Source: Planctomycetota bacterium
GTDB taxonomy: Bacteria > Planctomycetota > PLA2 > JAEUHO01
Assembly: GCA_965223505.1 (NCBI GenBank)
Contig: CBDCWP010000033.1
Coordinates: 1-64,000 of the forward strand
DNA: 64,000 nucleotides
Direction of reading: 5' to 3'
Shown: positions 12,001 through 18,000 of the stretch, piece after piece
Layout of the letters: each line of letters opens with the position of its first letter
How positions within the stretch are numbered: the first letter of the stretch is position 1
Made by a program: the position numbers

Positions 12001-15000
12001 GACCGCCTCTCCCTGATGCCGCACGTACGCGTCTGGGCGTCGCACCCGTCGTACGACTACCTCGCACGAGCACACCGATGGACGCTTCACAACGCGCACA
12101 TCGATCCGGACGCGGACCCCGACGACGTGCCGTGGGACGCGTTGCGGCAACGCATCGAGCGCCATCCCGCGACGCACATGCTCTGGGAGCGAGAACCCCG
12201 CGAGGAGCTGGCGGCGCGCATCGACGAGGAGCTGGGCCTCGAAGGCATCGTCGTCTCGACCTGCGAAACGAAACCGGACGGCGAAGAGACGTATCTCACG
12301 GTCATGACTGCGAACGTCGGGCGGCTGTTGAACGCGTTGCCGTTGGCCGAGCTCCCCGAAGAGGTCGTCGACGACGGACTCGACGACGCCCGCACGGTCG
12401 AGCAGCTCCTCGCCGTTCTCACGAGCGGCAACGAGGACGAACGCGAGGACGCCGTGCGCGTGCTGGCGCTGCGCCTCGACGCGGCGGCCTTGGAACGGGA
12501 CGGAGCGAAGCTGATCGCGCCGCTCACGGCCGCGCTGGGCGACGCGTCCGCCGATGTGACGGCCGGCGCCGCGAGCATCCTGGCCCGCATGGGTACGACG
12601 GCCGCGCCCGCCGTCGCGCCGCTCACCAAGGCACTAGAGCGCGACGATCCGATGGTGCGCGCGCGCGTCGCGACGGCGCTCCAGGAGATCGGCCCTGCGG
12701 CCGGATCGGCAACGAGCGCCCTCGTGGCGTTGTTGAACGATGCGACGGAGGTCGTGCGCATCAACGCGGCCGGCGCGTTGATCAAGATCGATCCGGATCC
12801 GGCGGTCGCCCTGACGCCTCTGACAACGTCCCTGCGCGGCGACGAGAGCGACGAGGTGCGCATCCATGCGGCGCTCGCGCTGGGCGAGCTGGGCGCGTCG
12901 GGCGGGCCCGCCGTGGGTGCGCTCGAGGCGGCGCTCACCGACGATCAGAGCGAGGTCCGCGCGGCCGCCGCCTGGGCGCTGGGCAACATCGGCGCGCCCG
13001 CGCGCGGCACGGTCGACGCGCTGAAGGAGCTGTTGAAGGACGAGCTGTTCGAGGTGCGAAGCGCCGCCCGCCGCGCGCTCGACCGCCTGGAAAAGTAGCG
13101 GCGAGACGGACCGCAGGACCGTCCGTACGCGGCGCTACAACGCGTGGCGATGGCGCTGCGCATGGTCGAGATCTTCCTGCCCGGCCGAGAGGCCGACACG
13201 GTGTCCGCTTCGATGGACGCCGAGCCGCGCGGCGGCCCCTGGACGCACGAGCTCGACGACGGGCGCAAGTGCGTACGCATGCTGCTCGACACCGAAGCCG
13301 CGGGCGACGCCATCGACGACCTCGAGCGCCGCTACGGCTCAACGCCGGGTTTCCGGTTGCTGATCTTCCCGATCCACGCCTCGCTGCCCCGCGCGGAGGA
13401 TCCGGAAGACCTTCCGGCGCACAAACGGCGCGCGACGCGCCACCGGTCCATCAGCCGCGAAGAGCTGTACGCCGAGGTGCAGAAGATGGCGACGCCGAAC
13501 CGCATCTTCTTCGCGACCGTCGTGCTCTCGACCATCGTCGTCGCCGTCGGCCTGTTCCGCGACAACGCGGCCGTGATCATCGGGGCGATGGTGATCGCGC
13601 CTCTGTTGGGTCCCAACGTCGCATTGTCATTGGCCGCGGCGCTGGGCGACCCGGCGATGCTCAAGCGAGGGGTCCAGTCGAACGGCTGGGGTCTCCTGAC
13701 GGCGCTGGCGCTCACGATCCCATTGGGGTACTTCGGCGCCGTGGCGTTGGCCGGTGACGCAGTTCCGGTAGAGATCCTGCGTCGCACGGAAGTGCATTGG
13801 AGCGACATCGTGCTGGCGCTCGCGGCGGGGAGTGCGGGCGCCTTGGCGCTGACGACCGGCGTCGCGAGCTCGCTGGTCGGGGTGATGGTGGCGGTGGCGT
13901 TGCTGCCGCCGACGGCCGTCGTCGGCATGCTCGTCGGCGCGGGGCCGGCGCACTACGACCTGCTGCCCGGCGCGTTGCTGCTCCTCGCGACGAACGTCGT
14001 CTGCGTGAACATCGCCGGAACGGCCACGTTTCGCATTCAGGGCATTCAACCGCGCACCTGGTTCGAGGCCGACCGCGCGACGCGCTCCACGCGGCTCGCG
14101 TTGGTGATCGGGGCCGTCGCGCTCGGCGCGCTGCTGGTGCTCATCGTGCTGCTGTAGGCGGGGCGAGGCTACCGCGGACGATTGGCGGCAATCAGCTCGG
14201 CCAACAGCGTGAACTCGCGCTTGCGCACCGACGTCTTGCGCCATGCCATGCCGATCGTTCGATATGGTCGCGGCTTCGTGAACGGCAGCGTGACCAACGC
14301 GGGATTCGACCGGGTCTCGGCCTCGATCGCGAGCGACGGCAACAGCGTCACGCCGATGCCCGCCGACACCATCTGCACGAGCGTGCTCAGGCTGCTGGCG
14401 CGCACGTCCGCCACCTCGCTCGAACCTGCCGACCGGCAGATGGCCCACGCCTGATCGCGAAGTCAGTGCCCGTCCTCGAGCAGCAGGAGATCACGCCCGT
14501 CGAGGTCCTGCTCGCGCGCACGCTTTCGTTTCGCGAGCGCGTGGGTGTCGGGAACGGCGAGCACGAAGCAGTCTCGAAAGAGCGCCAAGGGCTCCGCGCC
14601 CACGAGGTCGGCCTCCAACGCGAGCAGGAGCAGGTCGAGGTCGCCGTCCGCGAGCGACCGAACGAGCCGGTCGGTGTGATCCTCGCGAAGGAGGAGTCGC
14701 AGGTCCGGAAAGCGGCGACGAATCGGAGGGATCACACTGGGCAAGAGGTAGGGAGCGATGGTCGGGATCACGCCGAGTCGCAGCGTGCCCGTCAGGGGAC
14801 TGCCGTACGCGCCCGCGGCGTCGACCAGCTCGTCGACCTGCGTCAGGACGCTGCGCGCCTGCTCGATGGCGGTCTCCCCCGCGGCGGTGGGCAACACCTT
14901 GCGTCGGTCGCGCTCGAAGAGCTTCACGCCCAGCACGCGCTCGAGCTGCTGAATCTGGGCGCTGAGCCCGGGCTGCGAGACGAACGCGGCCTCCGCGGCC

Positions 15001-18000
15001 TTGCGGAAGTTGCGCTCGTTGCCCACGGCCACGAGGTACTCGAGCTGACGCAGCGTCGGTCGCATTGATAACTCCATATTATCAGAACGAGACTGTCTTT
15101 CGATTGGAACGATCAGAGAATTCGCGGAGAGTCACGCGCGTCGAACACCCATCAAGGAGATCCAGCATGTTGACCGTCGGAGACCGCTTCCCCCGCTTCA
15201 AGCTCACGGCCGTCGTTTCCTCGAACACGGCGAACGCGTTCCGGGAGATCGACGAGAGCACGTACGAAGGCGACTGGAAGGTCTACTTCTTCTATCCGAA
15301 GGACTTCACGTTCGTCTGCCCGACGGAGCTCGCCGGGTTCGCGAAGCTCAACGACGACTTCCAGGAGCGTGATGCGCAGCTCATCGGCGGCAGCACCGAC
15401 AGCGATTTCGTGCACCTCGCCTGGCGCAAGGACCACCCCGACCTGCAGAACCTCCCCTATCCGCTGCTCTCCGACATCAAGCGCGAGCTCAGCACGGAGC
15501 TCGGCATCCTCGACGCTGCCGAGGGTGTCTGCATGCGCGCGACCTTCATCGTGGATCCGGACGGGATCATCCGCTTCGTGAGCGTCAACGACGGCAGCGT
15601 CGGTCGCAACCCGGCCGAGGTCCTGCGCGTCCTGGACGCCCTGCAGACCGACGAGCTGTGCGCCTGCAACTGGCGCAAGGGCGAAGAGACGCTGCAGATC
15701 GCATAGGGGGATCTCGAAGGCCTGGGGCCCCTACCGACGAAAAGAGCTTCGATGAGCATCGCCGTACTCAAGGACCGCCTCCCGGCGTTCGCCAAGGATG
15801 TGCGCCTGAACCTGGGCGCGCTCGCGGACACGGAGAGCCTCACCCCGCAGCAGCTGTGGGGCACGTTGCTTTGCGCCGCCGCGTCGGCGCGCAACGCCGA
15901 GGTTCTGAAGGCCGTCGCCGAGGAGGCGCGCATCCACCTGGACGACGACGCTTTCGCGGCGGCGCGCGCGGCCGCGTCGATCATGGCGATGAACAACGTG
16001 TACTACCGCTTCGTGCATCACGTCGAAAACGACGTGTACGGCTCGATGCCTGCTCGCCTGCGCATGCAGGTCATCGCGCGGCCCGGCGTGGACAAGCTCG
16101 ACTTCGAGCTCTGGTCGCTGGCCGCGTCGGTCATCCACGGATGCGGCGCGTGCACGAACGCGCACGAGAACAAGGCGCTGCAGCGCGGCGCCTCGCCGGA
16201 GATGGTGCAGGATGTCGCACGCGCGGCGGCGATTCTCCACGCCGCCGCCGTCACGCTCGATGGAGAGGCCGCGCTCGACGGAAGGCCGGCGGCTACGAAC
16301 GCTTAGATTCAGCGAGAAAGGGATCTCATGTCAGACGTCACGAAGGAACTCAACCTGCTCCTCGCCGACTACCAGGTCTACTACCAGAAGCTCCGCAACT
16401 ACCACTGGAACGTACGCGGACCGCGGTTCTTCGAGCTGCACCTGAAGTTCGAAGAGCTGTACAACGGCGCCGCGCTGAAGGTGGACGAGCTCGCCGAGCG
16501 CGTGCTCGCCCTGGGCGAGAAGCCGTACTCCACGCTCGCGGAGCAGCTCGAGCACGCGCGCCTGTCGGAGGATGCGGGCGACCCCGATGCCGAGGCGATG
16601 GTCCGGAATCTCGTCGGAGACATTGAAACCCTGAACGGCGCGCTGCGTCATACGTCCGAAGCGGCGAGCGGCGCCGGCGACGCGGCCACGATGAACATGC
16701 TGGACGGCATGGCGGACGAACAGGAGAAGACCGCCTGGATGCTGAAGGCGTTCCTTTCGTAGCCATCCCCGGCCGCGCCCGTCAATAATGGCGTCGCCCG
16801 CCCGAACGGCGGACGACGAGAAGGACGGCACGTCTCGATGGGGTTGGACAACTACGAGTTGGTCGAAGAGCTGTTCACGGCGGCGCCGAGCACGTTCTAC
16901 CGAGGTCGCAACAAGATCCTCGGACACGAGCTCCTGGTGCGCCGGCTCTCCATCGACCCGGCGCGCGCCGAGAACGTGCGCGACACGTTCTTCCGCGAGC
17001 AGCGTCTGTCGGCGGCACTGAGCCACCCGCACATCCAGCGTCCCATCGACGTGCTCGAAGAGGACGGCTACCTGTGGTCCGTGCACGAGTATCACAAGCT
17101 CAAGCCGACCACGGAGATGGTCGAGGAGAACGGGCCGATGGAGCTGGCGGAAGCGGCGCGCATCGGTTCACAGGTGGCAGACGCCCTCGCGTTCATGCAC
17201 GCGAAGAACCACATCCACGGCAAGCTCGCGCCGCGGCTGGTCGTCGTGGACGAACGCGGCGACTCCATGTTGATCAACCTCGTGAAGGCCGCGGATCTCG
17301 CGGCGGACGTGTGGCCGCTTCGTCCCGCCGTTCTCGGCCTGACACCGTTCACCGCGCCGGAGGAGTTCCGCGGCGAGCGACCGACGAAGAGCTCCGATGT
17401 CTACGCGCTCGCCGCGACCATGGTGTATTGGGTGAGCGGGATGTGGCCGCGCGGCGGCGCGAACGAAGAAGAGGCCCTCGAGCGCGCGCGCGACGGCGCC
17501 GAGCTGATCGACTTGACCGCGCTGCATCAGCCGTTGCCGCCGACCCTGATCTCCGCGCTGACCGCAGCGCTCGAACCGGATCCGACCGAGCGCCACGGCG
17601 GCGCGGCGGCGTTCGGCTCGATCTTGATCGACATCTTCCAGCGGCAGGCGGCTGAGATCCCGTCCGGGTTCTCCACGGGCGCGCAGCTGCATCCGACCGG
17701 CACGCTGGACCGGGTGCAGATCCTGGGGCGACACGGCGCGGGCGCCTTCGGCGTCGTGCTGCGGGCGGCGGATCCCACGGATTCGTCCGTCTTCGCGGTC
17801 AAGGCGCTCAAGCCGGAGCACCGGGACGACAGCGAGGCGTATGAGCGCTTCGTGCGCGAGGCGCGGGCGCTCCATCAGATCCAGCATCCGAACGTGGTCC
17901 GCATCCACGGGGTCGGCGAGCAGCACGGAACGCCGTACGCGGTGATGGAGTTCATCTCCGGTCCCGACCTTGCCACGACGCTGTTGCGCGACGGCTGCCT

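Follow-up and report, generated by a model that had tools for sequence, protein, structure and literature searches.

A 298-codon gene on the minus strand of the window (the whole 64,000-nucleotide stretch that was analysed) is very probably an intact gene for an OxyR-type H2O2 sensor with selenocysteine (Sec) as its peroxide-reactive residue, a reading to which we give a probability of roughly 0.87. The survey's finding held that oxyR is split by an in-frame TGA at the position of E. coli Cys199, that the Cys208 partner position is kept, and that the gene is the only OxyR homolog of this genome; each of these points stood up. Translating the minus-strand frame 15077..14166 with TGA read as U revealed just one TGA inside the frame, within LLLEDGH-U-LRDQAWAIC, and the frame is closed by a TAG at 14171..14169. 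The ATG start at 15065 is backed by a conserved ..ATCAATG context among relatives. Only one OxyR match was found in this genome at E<=1e-30, making it the only close OxyR homologue there at that threshold. The features of the locus are as follows.

14169..15065, minus strand: oxyR coding sequence, 298 codons plus TAG stop, with one UGA taken as read through
14874..15053, minus strand: LysR-type helix-turn-helix DNA-binding domain, residues 5-64 (Pfam PF00126, HTH_1, 2.3e-21)
14187..14798, minus strand: LysR substrate-binding (regulatory) domain, residues 90-293 (Pfam PF03466, LysR_substrate, 3.6e-44; 1i6a, 1.9e-47)
14463..14465, minus strand: UGA, codon 201, probable selenocysteine codon at the peroxidatic Cys position (E. 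coli C199), from structure alignment and conservation
14436..14438, minus strand: UGC, codon 210, resolving Cys (E. coli C208 position), from alignment to OxyR structures
14424..14441, minus strand: candidate SECIS hairpin at RNA positions +25..+42, counted from the first base of the UGA; GGUC loop (+32..+35) on a stem of 7 bp, one of them G-U
15067..15083, no strand assigned: operator-like dyad GATAA-N7-TTATC, whose end lies 1 nt ahead of the oxyR ATG
15100..15115, no strand assigned: second conserved intergenic box (..CCAATCGA.., minus strand), common to most carriers in a by-eye comparison
15167..15706, plus strand: ahpC (peroxiredoxin), divergent from oxyR and its presumed target (PF00578, 1.7e-35)
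15752..16306, plus strand: ahpD-like gene, CMD family (PF02627, 3.1e-14)
16328..16762, plus strand: dps, ferritin-like DNA-protecting protein (PF00210, 4.3e-26)

The read-through protein matches solved OxyR proteins end to end (7l4s, 7.9e-61; 6g1b, 3.4e-55; 4x6g, 1.7e-49; 1i6a, 3.4e-47), and the values reported earlier for 7l4s, 6g1b and 1i6a were reproduced exactly. When the regulatory domain was aligned alone, the Cys of E. coli OxyR 1i6a (LEDGHCLRDQAMGFC) fell on the TGA and its second Cys on C210; 1i69, with S at the TGA-aligned residue, is otherwise as 1i6a, its second Cys also falling on C210, and 6g1b reads DDGHCLHDQ at the TGA position. The partner Cys lies nine residues past the UGA and is invariant in all seven genome carriers and in all carriers listed from a DNA pattern search. 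The P. aeruginosa pocket residues Thr100, Thr129, His198 and Arg270, as named in the available excerpts of Dalla Tiezza et al. 2020 (PMC7231847), correspond to T102, T131, H200 and R269, all invariant in the seven carriers. Counting against the assignment, the protein falls short with the NCBIfam equivalog model for OxyR, scoring 282.5 where the cut-off is 329. With the OxyR proteins of E. coli, P. aeruginosa and C. glutamicum (1i6a/1i69, 4x6g, 6g1b) the window's protein shares the two-domain architecture, the H-[C/U]-L-R-D-Q motif, the four pocket residues (Thr, Thr, His, Arg) and the position of the partner Cys (+9), and peroxide-defence genes are divergent there too. Unlike in those proteins, UGA is the codon of the peroxidatic residue, which would make the switch a selenenyl-sulfide in place of a disulfide, and the mRNA has a SECIS-like hairpin within the region coding for the sensor loop.

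The TGA recurs at the same codon far beyond this genome. Within the order, 11 of 40 genomes gave a match at E<=1e-40, with TGA at codon 201 in four (this genome, G025, G023 and G019, the last having a second TGA that is its terminator) and no stop in the other seven, the same counts as in the survey. All seven whole-genome carriers have the TGA at the equivalent of codon 201. The 86 matches listed contain seven internal stops, every one of them a TGA at this codon, and no in-frame stop elsewhere, which excludes chance. The DNA pattern E-D-G-H-TGA-[L/M]-R-x-Q-A was found at 31 loci, 30 of them OxyR genes with 82-114 open codons past the TGA. We count 26 distinct Sec-form genes, the window's and 25 labelled Planctomycetota, Myxococcota, Binatia or Entotheonella, and among the best 120 protein database matches 43 are 200-236 residues long, every one ending ..DGH at the TGA codon; the 12 carriers known before are thereby extended to 26 genes and 43 truncated database clusters. 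All carriers are metagenome-derived (13 of 13 genome records are MAGs, none from a cultured organism), and the TGA is identical, with zero differences, in contigs from two samples of one study (record 17 of X3 spans 14138-14492).

Such a stop might simply reflect a Cys codon lost to a nonsense mutation, with oxyR thereby inactivated and no function left past codon 200. TGC, the commonest Cys codon at this position (83 of the 103 Cys forms located, all the other 20 having TGT), is one base change away from TGA, pipelines annotate the gene as two pieces, and the 43 database proteins end at the TGA codon. Conservation downstream of the TGA contradicts this explanation, which we consider extremely unlikely: the same stop stands at the same codon in 26 distinct genes of several phyla and nowhere else among the 86 matches listed, the 82-114 codons that follow are open and conserved, and the downstream partner Cys and pocket Arg are invariant. 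In seven close carrier pairs dN/dS was 0.25-0.42 past the TGA, as compared to 0.11-0.26 before it. Sec forms have also arisen repeatedly among Cys forms. They are interleaved with them in a FastTree gene tree, in which no fewer than 11 changes are required, starred branches forcing 6; an IQ-TREE gene tree needs 12, and placing all Sec forms in one clade is rejected by an AU test (delta lnL 816, p 1e-50). The Sec forms are thus not one clade.

Bacterial Sec insertion competes with release factor 2, so some 200-residue product is expected. We considered whether termination could be the main, intended outcome, the short protein, with its DNA-binding domain (residues 5-64) complete, a linker and roughly one half of the regulatory domain, being the working regulator and the full-length form a minor by-product. 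The Pfam LysR_substrate match (residues 90-293) spans the TGA, and the UGA cuts that domain mid-way; the 200-residue product would therefore be without about 45% of the regulatory domain, and with that part the partner Cys and conserved Arg would be lost. The purifying selection on the part past the UGA implies that this part is translated and needed, and we regard intended termination as highly improbable.

The full-length Sec reading also calls on a decoding apparatus, and this genome encodes one: tRNA-Sec, selB (335.7 bits), selA (507 bits) and a selD that has an in-frame TGA of its own (Sec-type). TGA is still a normal stop here: of 4250 open frames with 400 codons or more, 2219 end in it. 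Sec machinery was present in all 13 carrier genomes checked, though selB above the cut-off was not found in two of the MAGs, G244 and G321 (90% and 76% complete, respectively). As selA occurs in 285 of 401 genomes of the phylum, finding the machinery in a carrier there has little diagnostic weight.

The candidate hairpin overlaps the resolving-Cys codon and is found unchanged in two clade-mates (L141 and L159); of randomly chosen places in this genome, 1.5% have such a hairpin. The window's hairpin looks like those after three other candidate Sec codons of the genome (GUGCC-GGUCU-GGCAC at +27, CCAGGUG-GGU-CACCUGG at +25 and UCCAG-GUC-CUGGA at +31). Counting against it, the selD hairpin has a loop without GU. 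Hairpins in which 5 bp or more enclose a loop with GU at +19..+41 follow the codon in 23 of 26 Sec forms versus 32 of 103 Cys forms; this definition was framed after sight of the data, and the sequences, being related, are not independent. The other three Sec forms (L160, L166 and L170) have no hairpin by this definition.

The survey had seen no strong common hairpin. It is true that none is common to all carriers, since the hairpin varies by lineage, with loops at +24, +32 and +38, but most carriers do share a register with the loop at +24..+28; in the window's clade the hairpin lies 8 nt further on. Across columns 17-23 with 29-35 of that register, Sec forms were 72.5% paired with a covariation of 0.255, values reached by 0 of 500 shuffles, whereas Cys forms were 53.8% paired, equal to the shuffle expectation. 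General folding energy was unremarkable: the window's 70 nt past the UGA gave z = -0.55, and Sec and Cys forms did not differ in folding energy once G+C was allowed for (p = 0.45).

Since the inserted residue is not readable from sequence alone, the UGA could instead be read as Trp or Cys by a near-cognate tRNA, or as Cys carried on tRNA-Sec, yielding an ordinary thiol OxyR or a low-level inactive variant. The failure of general hairpin stability to separate Sec from Cys forms and the two MAGs in which selB was below the cut-off or not found would fit this. We nevertheless judge it very unlikely, given the dedicated machinery in all 13 carrier genomes checked, the enrichment of a SECIS-type hairpin at the expected distance with covariation in Sec forms only, and the match between the window's hairpin and those after the genome's other candidate Sec codons. 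The site is a redox-active Cys, the classic place for Sec/Cys exchange, and leakiness would leave the restriction of TGA to one codon unexplained. A Sec/Cys pair at a redox-active residue, a TGA recurring across lineages, downstream purifying selection, Sec machinery in the carriers checked and a SECIS-like hairpin at the usual distance are together the usual genomic marks of a bacterial selenoprotein, and their joint presence supports the survey's interpretation of the gene as encoding a selenoprotein transcription factor.

If the UGA encodes Sec, this would be the first natural selenium-containing transcription factor. Proteins of the FmdB family (TIGR02605) are small and zinc-ribbon-type, with neither fold nor domain make-up related to LysR/OxyR, and are not known to bind DNA. 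Their 'putative regulatory protein' (UxxU) is the sole entry worded 'regulatory' in Table 1 of the 2026 selenoprotein inventory (PMC13188914), and that table, taken whole, has no LysR or OxyR among its 119 families. In its available excerpts, Dalla Tiezza et al. 2020 (PMC7231847) states that no Sec variant of OxyR had been discovered in nature; the survey's claim of novelty agrees with both sources. The same excerpts describe this idea in silico, DFT on a Sec-substituted P. aeruginosa OxyR pocket finding Sec oxidation thermodynamically and kinetically favoured over Cys, whereas the genes described here are natural. Sec-containing peroxide-reducing enzymes (Prx with T-x-x-U, and GPx; PMC13188914 Table 1) likewise have Sec for the peroxidatic Cys, common Cys homologues and a SECIS in the coding region directly after the UGA, as in Sec-oxyR, but they turn over peroxide, whereas Sec-OxyR would be a DNA-binding regulator for which one oxidation event is the signal. 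LysR_Se/HrsM (NCBIfam NF040786) is also a LysR-family regulator tied to selenium biology; as described in excerpts of PMC9312934, it responds to selenium status and is itself no selenoprotein. The window's protein scored 131 bits against NF040786 (cut-off 250), compared to 282.5 against the OxyR model.

We propose that codon 201 is decoded by SelB with Sec-tRNA(Sec), directed by the in-CDS hairpin 25-42 nt downstream. By analogy with OxyR chemistry, the U201 selenolate, held in the conserved pocket (T102, T131, H200, R269), would attack H2O2 to give a selenenic acid, which would then form an intramolecular selenenyl-sulfide with Cys210. The resulting change in the regulatory domain may alter how the tetramer contacts an operator at its own start codon and so turn on the divergent ahpC-ahpD-dps genes; cellular thiol reductases would presumably reset the switch.

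The gene context is consistent with such an output. AhpC, AhpD/CMD and Dps genes lie on the plus strand beside oxyR, as the survey had it, and peroxide-defence genes are divergent from Sec-oxyR in 11 of the 13 loci with enough flank. A dyad of the form GATAA-N7-TTATC ending no more than 3 nt from the start codon was found in 13 of 22 carriers, against a background of 223 in 20000 random 76-nt pieces.

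OxyR is the textbook direct sensor of H2O2, acting through one cysteine, and its regulatory domain is the sensing module of the HyPer fluorescent peroxide probes. The survey's finding was that the oxyR gene in this window carries an in-frame TGA at the position of E. coli Cys199. Our analysis bore this out, recovering one frame of 298 codons with a single TGA, at the sensing codon (codon 201; U201 denotes the putative Sec there).

15065..14169, minus strand: oxyR frame, 298 codons ending in TAG, with a single internal TGA
14465..14463, minus strand: in-frame TGA within the motif LLLEDGH-U-LRDQAWAIC (translated with TGA as U)

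The read-through protein has a helix-turn-helix domain (PF00126, 2.3e-21, aa 5-64) and a substrate-binding domain that spans the TGA (PF03466, 3.6e-44, aa 90-293). It matched solved OxyRs end to end, with 7l4s (7.9e-61), 6g1b (3.4e-55) and 1i6a (3.4e-47) returning the E-values previously reported and 4x6g giving 1.7e-49. The top 17 distinct sequences in the PDB ranking were OxyR or LysR-labelled, followed by CysB at 3.4e-22. The OxyR model NF008361 also ranked first in NCBIfam, with 282.5 bits against 167 for the next non-OxyR model, CynR. This score lies below the 329-bit equivalog cut-off of NF008361, which is an automatic-naming threshold and marks no biological feature; the model is presumably built mainly on proteobacterial OxyR. 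Because of the similarity to solved OxyRs, we regard the OxyR fold as settled. The genome contains only one match to the OxyR protein at E<=1e-30. Two samples of a single study yielded contigs in which the TGA is identical, and the assembly may derive from one of these samples; no RNA run was listed.

With the regulatory domain alone as query, the E. coli OxyR structures 1i6a and 1i69 (a C199S mutant, representing the reduced form) are a single residue apart, C versus S. That residue aligned to the TGA, and the second E. coli cysteine aligned to C210, the resolving Cys, at residue +9. The peroxidatic Cys of the H-C-L-R motif is therefore absent as a Cys codon, with UGA in its place. C210 is invariant in carriers, our term for oxyR genes with TGA at the sensing codon (also called Sec forms; all are metagenome-derived), and T102, T131, H200, R269 and T270 are likewise invariant in the seven genome carriers. 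Sections of a 2020 DFT study of Sec substitution give the pocket residues of P. aeruginosa OxyR as Thr100, Thr129, His198 and Arg270 (PMC7231847). T102, T131, H200 and R269 appear to correspond to these four, judging by a constant +2 offset in the alignments and, for the Arg, a common R-T-I-G motif.

We then asked how widely the TGA recurs. In the order, which equals the whole class in our set of 40 genomes, 13 genomes matched at E<=1e-30 and four had TGA at codon 201. The phylum sample, in which 78 of 401 genomes matched at E<=1e-40, added three more with TGA at the same aligned codon, from two other families. Among the 86 matches listed from order and phylum sample, seven had an internal stop, every one a TGA at the sensing codon, and none had an in-frame stop elsewhere. 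The 200-residue N-terminal part was also searched against 5.8 billion protein clusters: 43 of the best 120 hits were 200-236 aa long, all 43 ending in ..DGH, and 75 of the 77 longer ones read DGH-C-L-R. Finally, a degenerate DNA pattern encoding E-D-G-H-TGA-[L/M]-R-x-Q-A matched 14 times in species-representative genomes and 17 times in metagenome contigs. Thirty of these 31 loci are OxyR genes, with 82-114 open codons after the TGA and a Cys at residue +9. One Chloroflexi locus (L151) was a chance pattern match, with four open codons before the TGA and 11 after, and another locus (L165) was dropped for a frameshift that breaks its upstream frame, at an assembly coverage of 2.7x. Once L165 and duplicates were removed, 26 distinct Sec-type genes were left, that of the window included. 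The 13 genome loci, all from MAGs, are labelled Planctomycetota (7), Myxococcota/'Deltaproteobacteria'/Kofleriaceae (4), Candidatus Binatia (1) and Candidatus Entotheonella (1).

For comparison we collected Cys forms, with TGC or TGT at the sensing codon, using a peptide pattern that has C at the Sec position and so returns almost only Cys forms. Among the 115 loci examined, the aligned codon was TGC in 83 and TGT in 20, accounting for all 103 in which the motif was located. A FastTree tree of 23 Sec and all 103 Cys forms, built with the Sec/Cys trait column masked, implied at least 11 state changes, of which six are required by branches with good support. In IQ-TREE the 23 Sec forms were combined with 45 Cys forms out of the 103, namely the nearer ones and a few outgroups, and that tree implied 12. 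Both trees are unrooted, so the direction of the changes is not readable. On the IQ-TREE set a single Sec clade was rejected, costing 816 log-likelihood units (AU p 1e-50). A TGA within a gene might be taken for decay; repeated exchange at one redox-active codon is instead the signature of Sec/Cys interconversion. We also noted a metagenomic Sec form, L170, that is a near-twin of a Cys form on a Pseudomonadales MAG chromosome, L125 (tree path 0.115; TGA versus TGC). L170 lies on a 1.5-kb contig and has no hairpin by the GU-loop criterion described below; the difference between the two could stem from very recent conversion, from polymorphism or from an error.

The sequence beyond the TGA behaves as coding sequence. 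In seven close pairs out of the 231 among 22 full-length carriers, dN/dS was 0.11-0.26 upstream of the TGA and 0.25-0.42 downstream; only these seven were used, the distant pairs being saturated (pS 0.4-0.7) and uninformative. Judged by these ratios, selection on the downstream part is somewhat weaker, yet clearly purifying. A 200-residue product ending at the TGA could not fold as a LysR effector domain, because the TGA halves the regulatory domain.

The genome (5.15 Mb in 44 contigs, 67% G+C, 92% complete) has all four Sec genes: selA, selB, selD and a tRNA-Sec found by both ARAGORN and Rfam (69 bits). Of its 4250 stop-to-stop frames with 400 codons or more, 2219 end in TGA, so no genome-wide reassignment of this codon has taken place. 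Sec machinery (selB, or selA with or without tRNA-Sec) was present in 13 of 13 carrier genomes checked. Four other carrier genomes (G025, G023, G019 and G229) have selB, and six carrier genomes reached through loci have selA; G244 (90% complete) and G321 (76% complete) had no selB above the cut-off, and in both we found selA and tRNA-Sec. The same genes are widespread: 39 of the order's 40 genomes have selB, 285 of the 401 sampled from the phylum have selA, and selA also occurs in sister genomes that carry Cys forms. Since it is this common, the machinery fails as a discriminator; it is a necessary but non-diagnostic trait, and weak evidence.

Other genes of this genome also carry candidate Sec codons. 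At C8:36851-39232, selA is directly followed by selD (L017, L018), and selD has an in-frame TGA at its catalytic position, G-A-G-G-U-A-A-K, which makes it a Sec-type SelD. A first motif scan for thioredoxin-fold Sec genes gave 0 hits. Relaxing the scan raised this to 1414 raw places, or 240 after filtering; three of them were picked by eye and checked with Pfam, a selection rather than a selenoproteome census. These three thioredoxin-fold candidates have TGA at the first position of U-x-x-C, with Pfam domains that span it:

C5:23300-25200: L172, candidate Sec gene, U-x-x-C TGA
C10:185000-186700: L173, candidate Sec gene, U-x-x-C TGA
C11:5100-7800: L174, candidate Sec gene, U-x-x-C TGA

Two of them are TlpA/Redoxin-like, with W-U-A-G-C and T-U-G-P-C, and one is a full DsbD-like protein (DsbD_N, DsbD_TM and Thioredoxin_7) with W-U-A-T-C.

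The insertion signal is the weakest part of the case for Sec. In a bacterial SECIS the apical loop is small, contains G and lies about 16-37 nt from the UGA on the downstream side, a description on which our hairpin criterion was modelled. The window has one candidate, with RNA positions counted from the U of UGA:

14441..14424 (+25..+42), minus strand: candidate SECIS, 7-bp stem with a GGUC loop at +32..+35, common to the two closest relatives

The 70 nt after the window's UGA folded no better than shuffles (z = -0.55), and the Sec/Cys difference in best-hairpin energy and in 53-nt MFE was explained by G+C (adjusted p = 0.45). With no excess over shuffles and a Sec/Cys gap that reflects G+C alone, general stability is unusable as evidence. 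A family criterion, set post hoc, asked for an unbroken stem of 5 bp or more and a 3-8 nt loop containing GU, with its G at +19..+41. Of the 26 Sec forms, 23 had such a hairpin; of the 103 Cys forms, 32 did. Relatives are not independent in these counts. Three of the 26 Sec forms had none by this GU-loop criterion. Stems of at least 7 bp occurred in 14 of 26 Sec forms versus 6 of 103 Cys forms. The background of such a hairpin in the window's genome is 1.5% at random places and 1.6% downstream of all TGA trinucleotides.

In 16 of the 23 the G lies at +25; here the codon preceding that of the partner Cys forms the loop, and the A-L-A and C-E-R codons form the stem. This +25 register, chosen after looking at the sequences, was 72.5% paired in the 26 Sec forms with a covariation of 0.255, and 0 of 500 shuffles reached either value. 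Registers slid along the Sec forms were 33-55% paired, and in the +25 register three pairs had changed on both sides. The 103 Cys forms, in contrast, were 53.8% paired in this register, equal to the shuffle expectation. The hairpin offset differs by clade, taking three positions, and there is no single conserved structure. The survey had seen no strong common hairpin; this holds in that no one structure is found in all carriers, but the +25 register pairs and covaries, and does so in Sec forms only.

L172-L174 have G+C-rich stems of 5-7 bp with GGUCU, GGU or GUC loops at +25..+31, and in one of them the hairpin is nearly that of oxyR (..UGCC-GGUCU-GGCA.. versus ..UGCC-GGUC-GGCA..). The selD hairpin is an exception among the genome's candidate SECIS elements: its 8-nt loop lacks GU, and GU is therefore no strict requirement here. 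Most of the stem is kept in six Cys forms from Kofleriaceae and Myxococcota, L063, L065, L070, L074, L077 and L080, as ..CTCGCG-GTGT/GTCT-GCGAGCG.. in codons +5 to +12 after the Cys codon; these lie near the Myxococcota Sec forms. The kept stems could be either a pre-existing hairpin that eased Cys-to-Sec change or the mark of recent Sec-to-Cys reversions. Stems kept in some Kofleriaceae Cys forms are what recent exchange, in either direction, would lead one to expect.

On the opposite strand, about 100 nt from the oxyR start, lie genes for AhpC, an AhpD/CMD protein and Dps, the divergent arrangement that the survey had described. Divergent peroxide-defence genes were present at 11 of the 13 Sec-oxyR loci with enough flank, the window counted. 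In the other carriers these encode Dps (3), a Prx-Grx fusion (3, one also with Dps), AhpC and AhpD (2) or a KatG-like peroxidase (2). Two loci had no recognisable divergent neighbour, and four short metagenome flanks were uninformative. The region between oxyR and ahpC (15066-15166) holds two boxes:

15067-15083: operator-like dyad GATAA-N7-TTATC next to the oxyR start codon, also present in most other carriers
15100-15115: second conserved box, ..CCAATCGA.., some 30 nt beyond the dyad, also present in most other carriers

In 13 of 22 carriers a dyad matching GATA[A/G]-N7-N[T/G]AT[C/G], a pattern framed post hoc, ends no more than 3 nt from the oxyR start codon; the background rate is 1.1%. 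OxyR operators consist of ATAG-N7-CTAT repeats in a canonical four-site pattern. The dyad resembles an operator half-site of this consensus, but the spacing of the two boxes is unlike the canonical four-site form. Together the two boxes look like a putative OxyR operator, and the DNA-binding side of the system may be conserved too.

What the data show is an intact gene under selection that encodes an OxyR, has UGA as its sensing codon, occurs in genomes equipped for Sec and lies beside peroxide-defence genes. The survey's reading of a selenoprotein transcription factor thus gains comparative-genomic support, from the 26 TGA forms, the dN/dS of 0.25-0.42 and the Sec machinery. We conclude that the oxyR product is very probably a selenoprotein transcription factor, with a probability of roughly 0.87. 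In the mechanism we propose, Sec would be inserted SelB-dependently, directed by the hairpin. H2O2 would oxidise the U201 selenolate to a selenenic acid, which would form a selenenyl-sulfide with C210; the regulatory domain would switch as in thiol OxyR and activate ahpC-ahpD-dps, and thiol reductases would re-reduce the selenenyl-sulfide. Sections of the DFT study report Sec in the P. aeruginosa OxyR pocket to be thermodynamically and kinetically favoured (PMC7231847). Favoured oxidation of Sec would fit a more sensitive sensor.

A wider reading joins five propositions and, taken whole, seems to us rather unlikely. First, OxyR would have undergone many Cys/Sec conversions among bacteria that use Sec, across four or more phylum-level groups. 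Second, if so, the Sec forms would be natural selenium sensors that, compared with thiol OxyR, react faster with H2O2, suffer less irreversible over-oxidation and reset faster. Third, the peroxide-defence regulon would be tied to selenium status, because the full-length sensor needs selenium. Fourth, scarce selenium would leave a 200-residue DNA-binding fragment on the operator as a non-inducible competitor. Fifth, RNA structure and redox chemistry would be constrained together, because the SECIS shares sequence with the sensor loop and with the codon of the partner Cys.

The survey's claim of novelty also stood: our searches of the open full-text literature found no natural Sec-OxyR, and Table 1 of the 2026 prokaryotic selenoproteome inventory, with 119 families and subfamilies, has no LysR/OxyR entry (PMC13188914). 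The words 'LysR', 'OxyR' and 'transcriptional' are absent from the main text and one supplement of BSepDB and from the main text and four supplements of deep-Sep. In sections of a 2022 review, LysR appears only as the selenium-responsive regulator LysR_Se/HrsM (PMC9312934), and the 2020 modelling of Sec-OxyR, in the sections concerned, predicted higher reactivity with no natural example known (PMC7231847). On sequence grounds, Sec-OxyR is a new putative selenoprotein family and a new chemical variant of the classic sensor. If true, it would be the first selenoprotein to serve gene regulation rather than catalysis, a family beyond the 119 of the inventory and the natural counterpart of the modelled substitution. 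It would offer a ready-made test of what selenium gains in signalling, in rate, resistance to over-oxidation and reversibility, and possibly a template for faster or more robust peroxide probes. Standard annotation splits Sec-oxyR systematically (43 of the best 120 database entries end at the Sec codon), so peroxide regulation is probably mis-described in many uncultured Planctomycetota and Myxococcota.

Three further genes of the window lie close to this locus. Convergent with the oxyR 3' end, with 11 nt between the stops, is a gene for a DUF389 membrane protein (13144-14157, plus strand). At 11422-13098 (plus strand) a periplasmic ZnuA-type metal-binding domain is fused to C-terminal HEAT repeats (PF01297 and PF13646), an unusual architecture for a zinc-uptake binding protein. 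Directly after dps, at 16838-18508 (plus strand), a 556-aa protein has two protein kinase domain stretches, resembling tandem Ser/Thr kinase-like halves.
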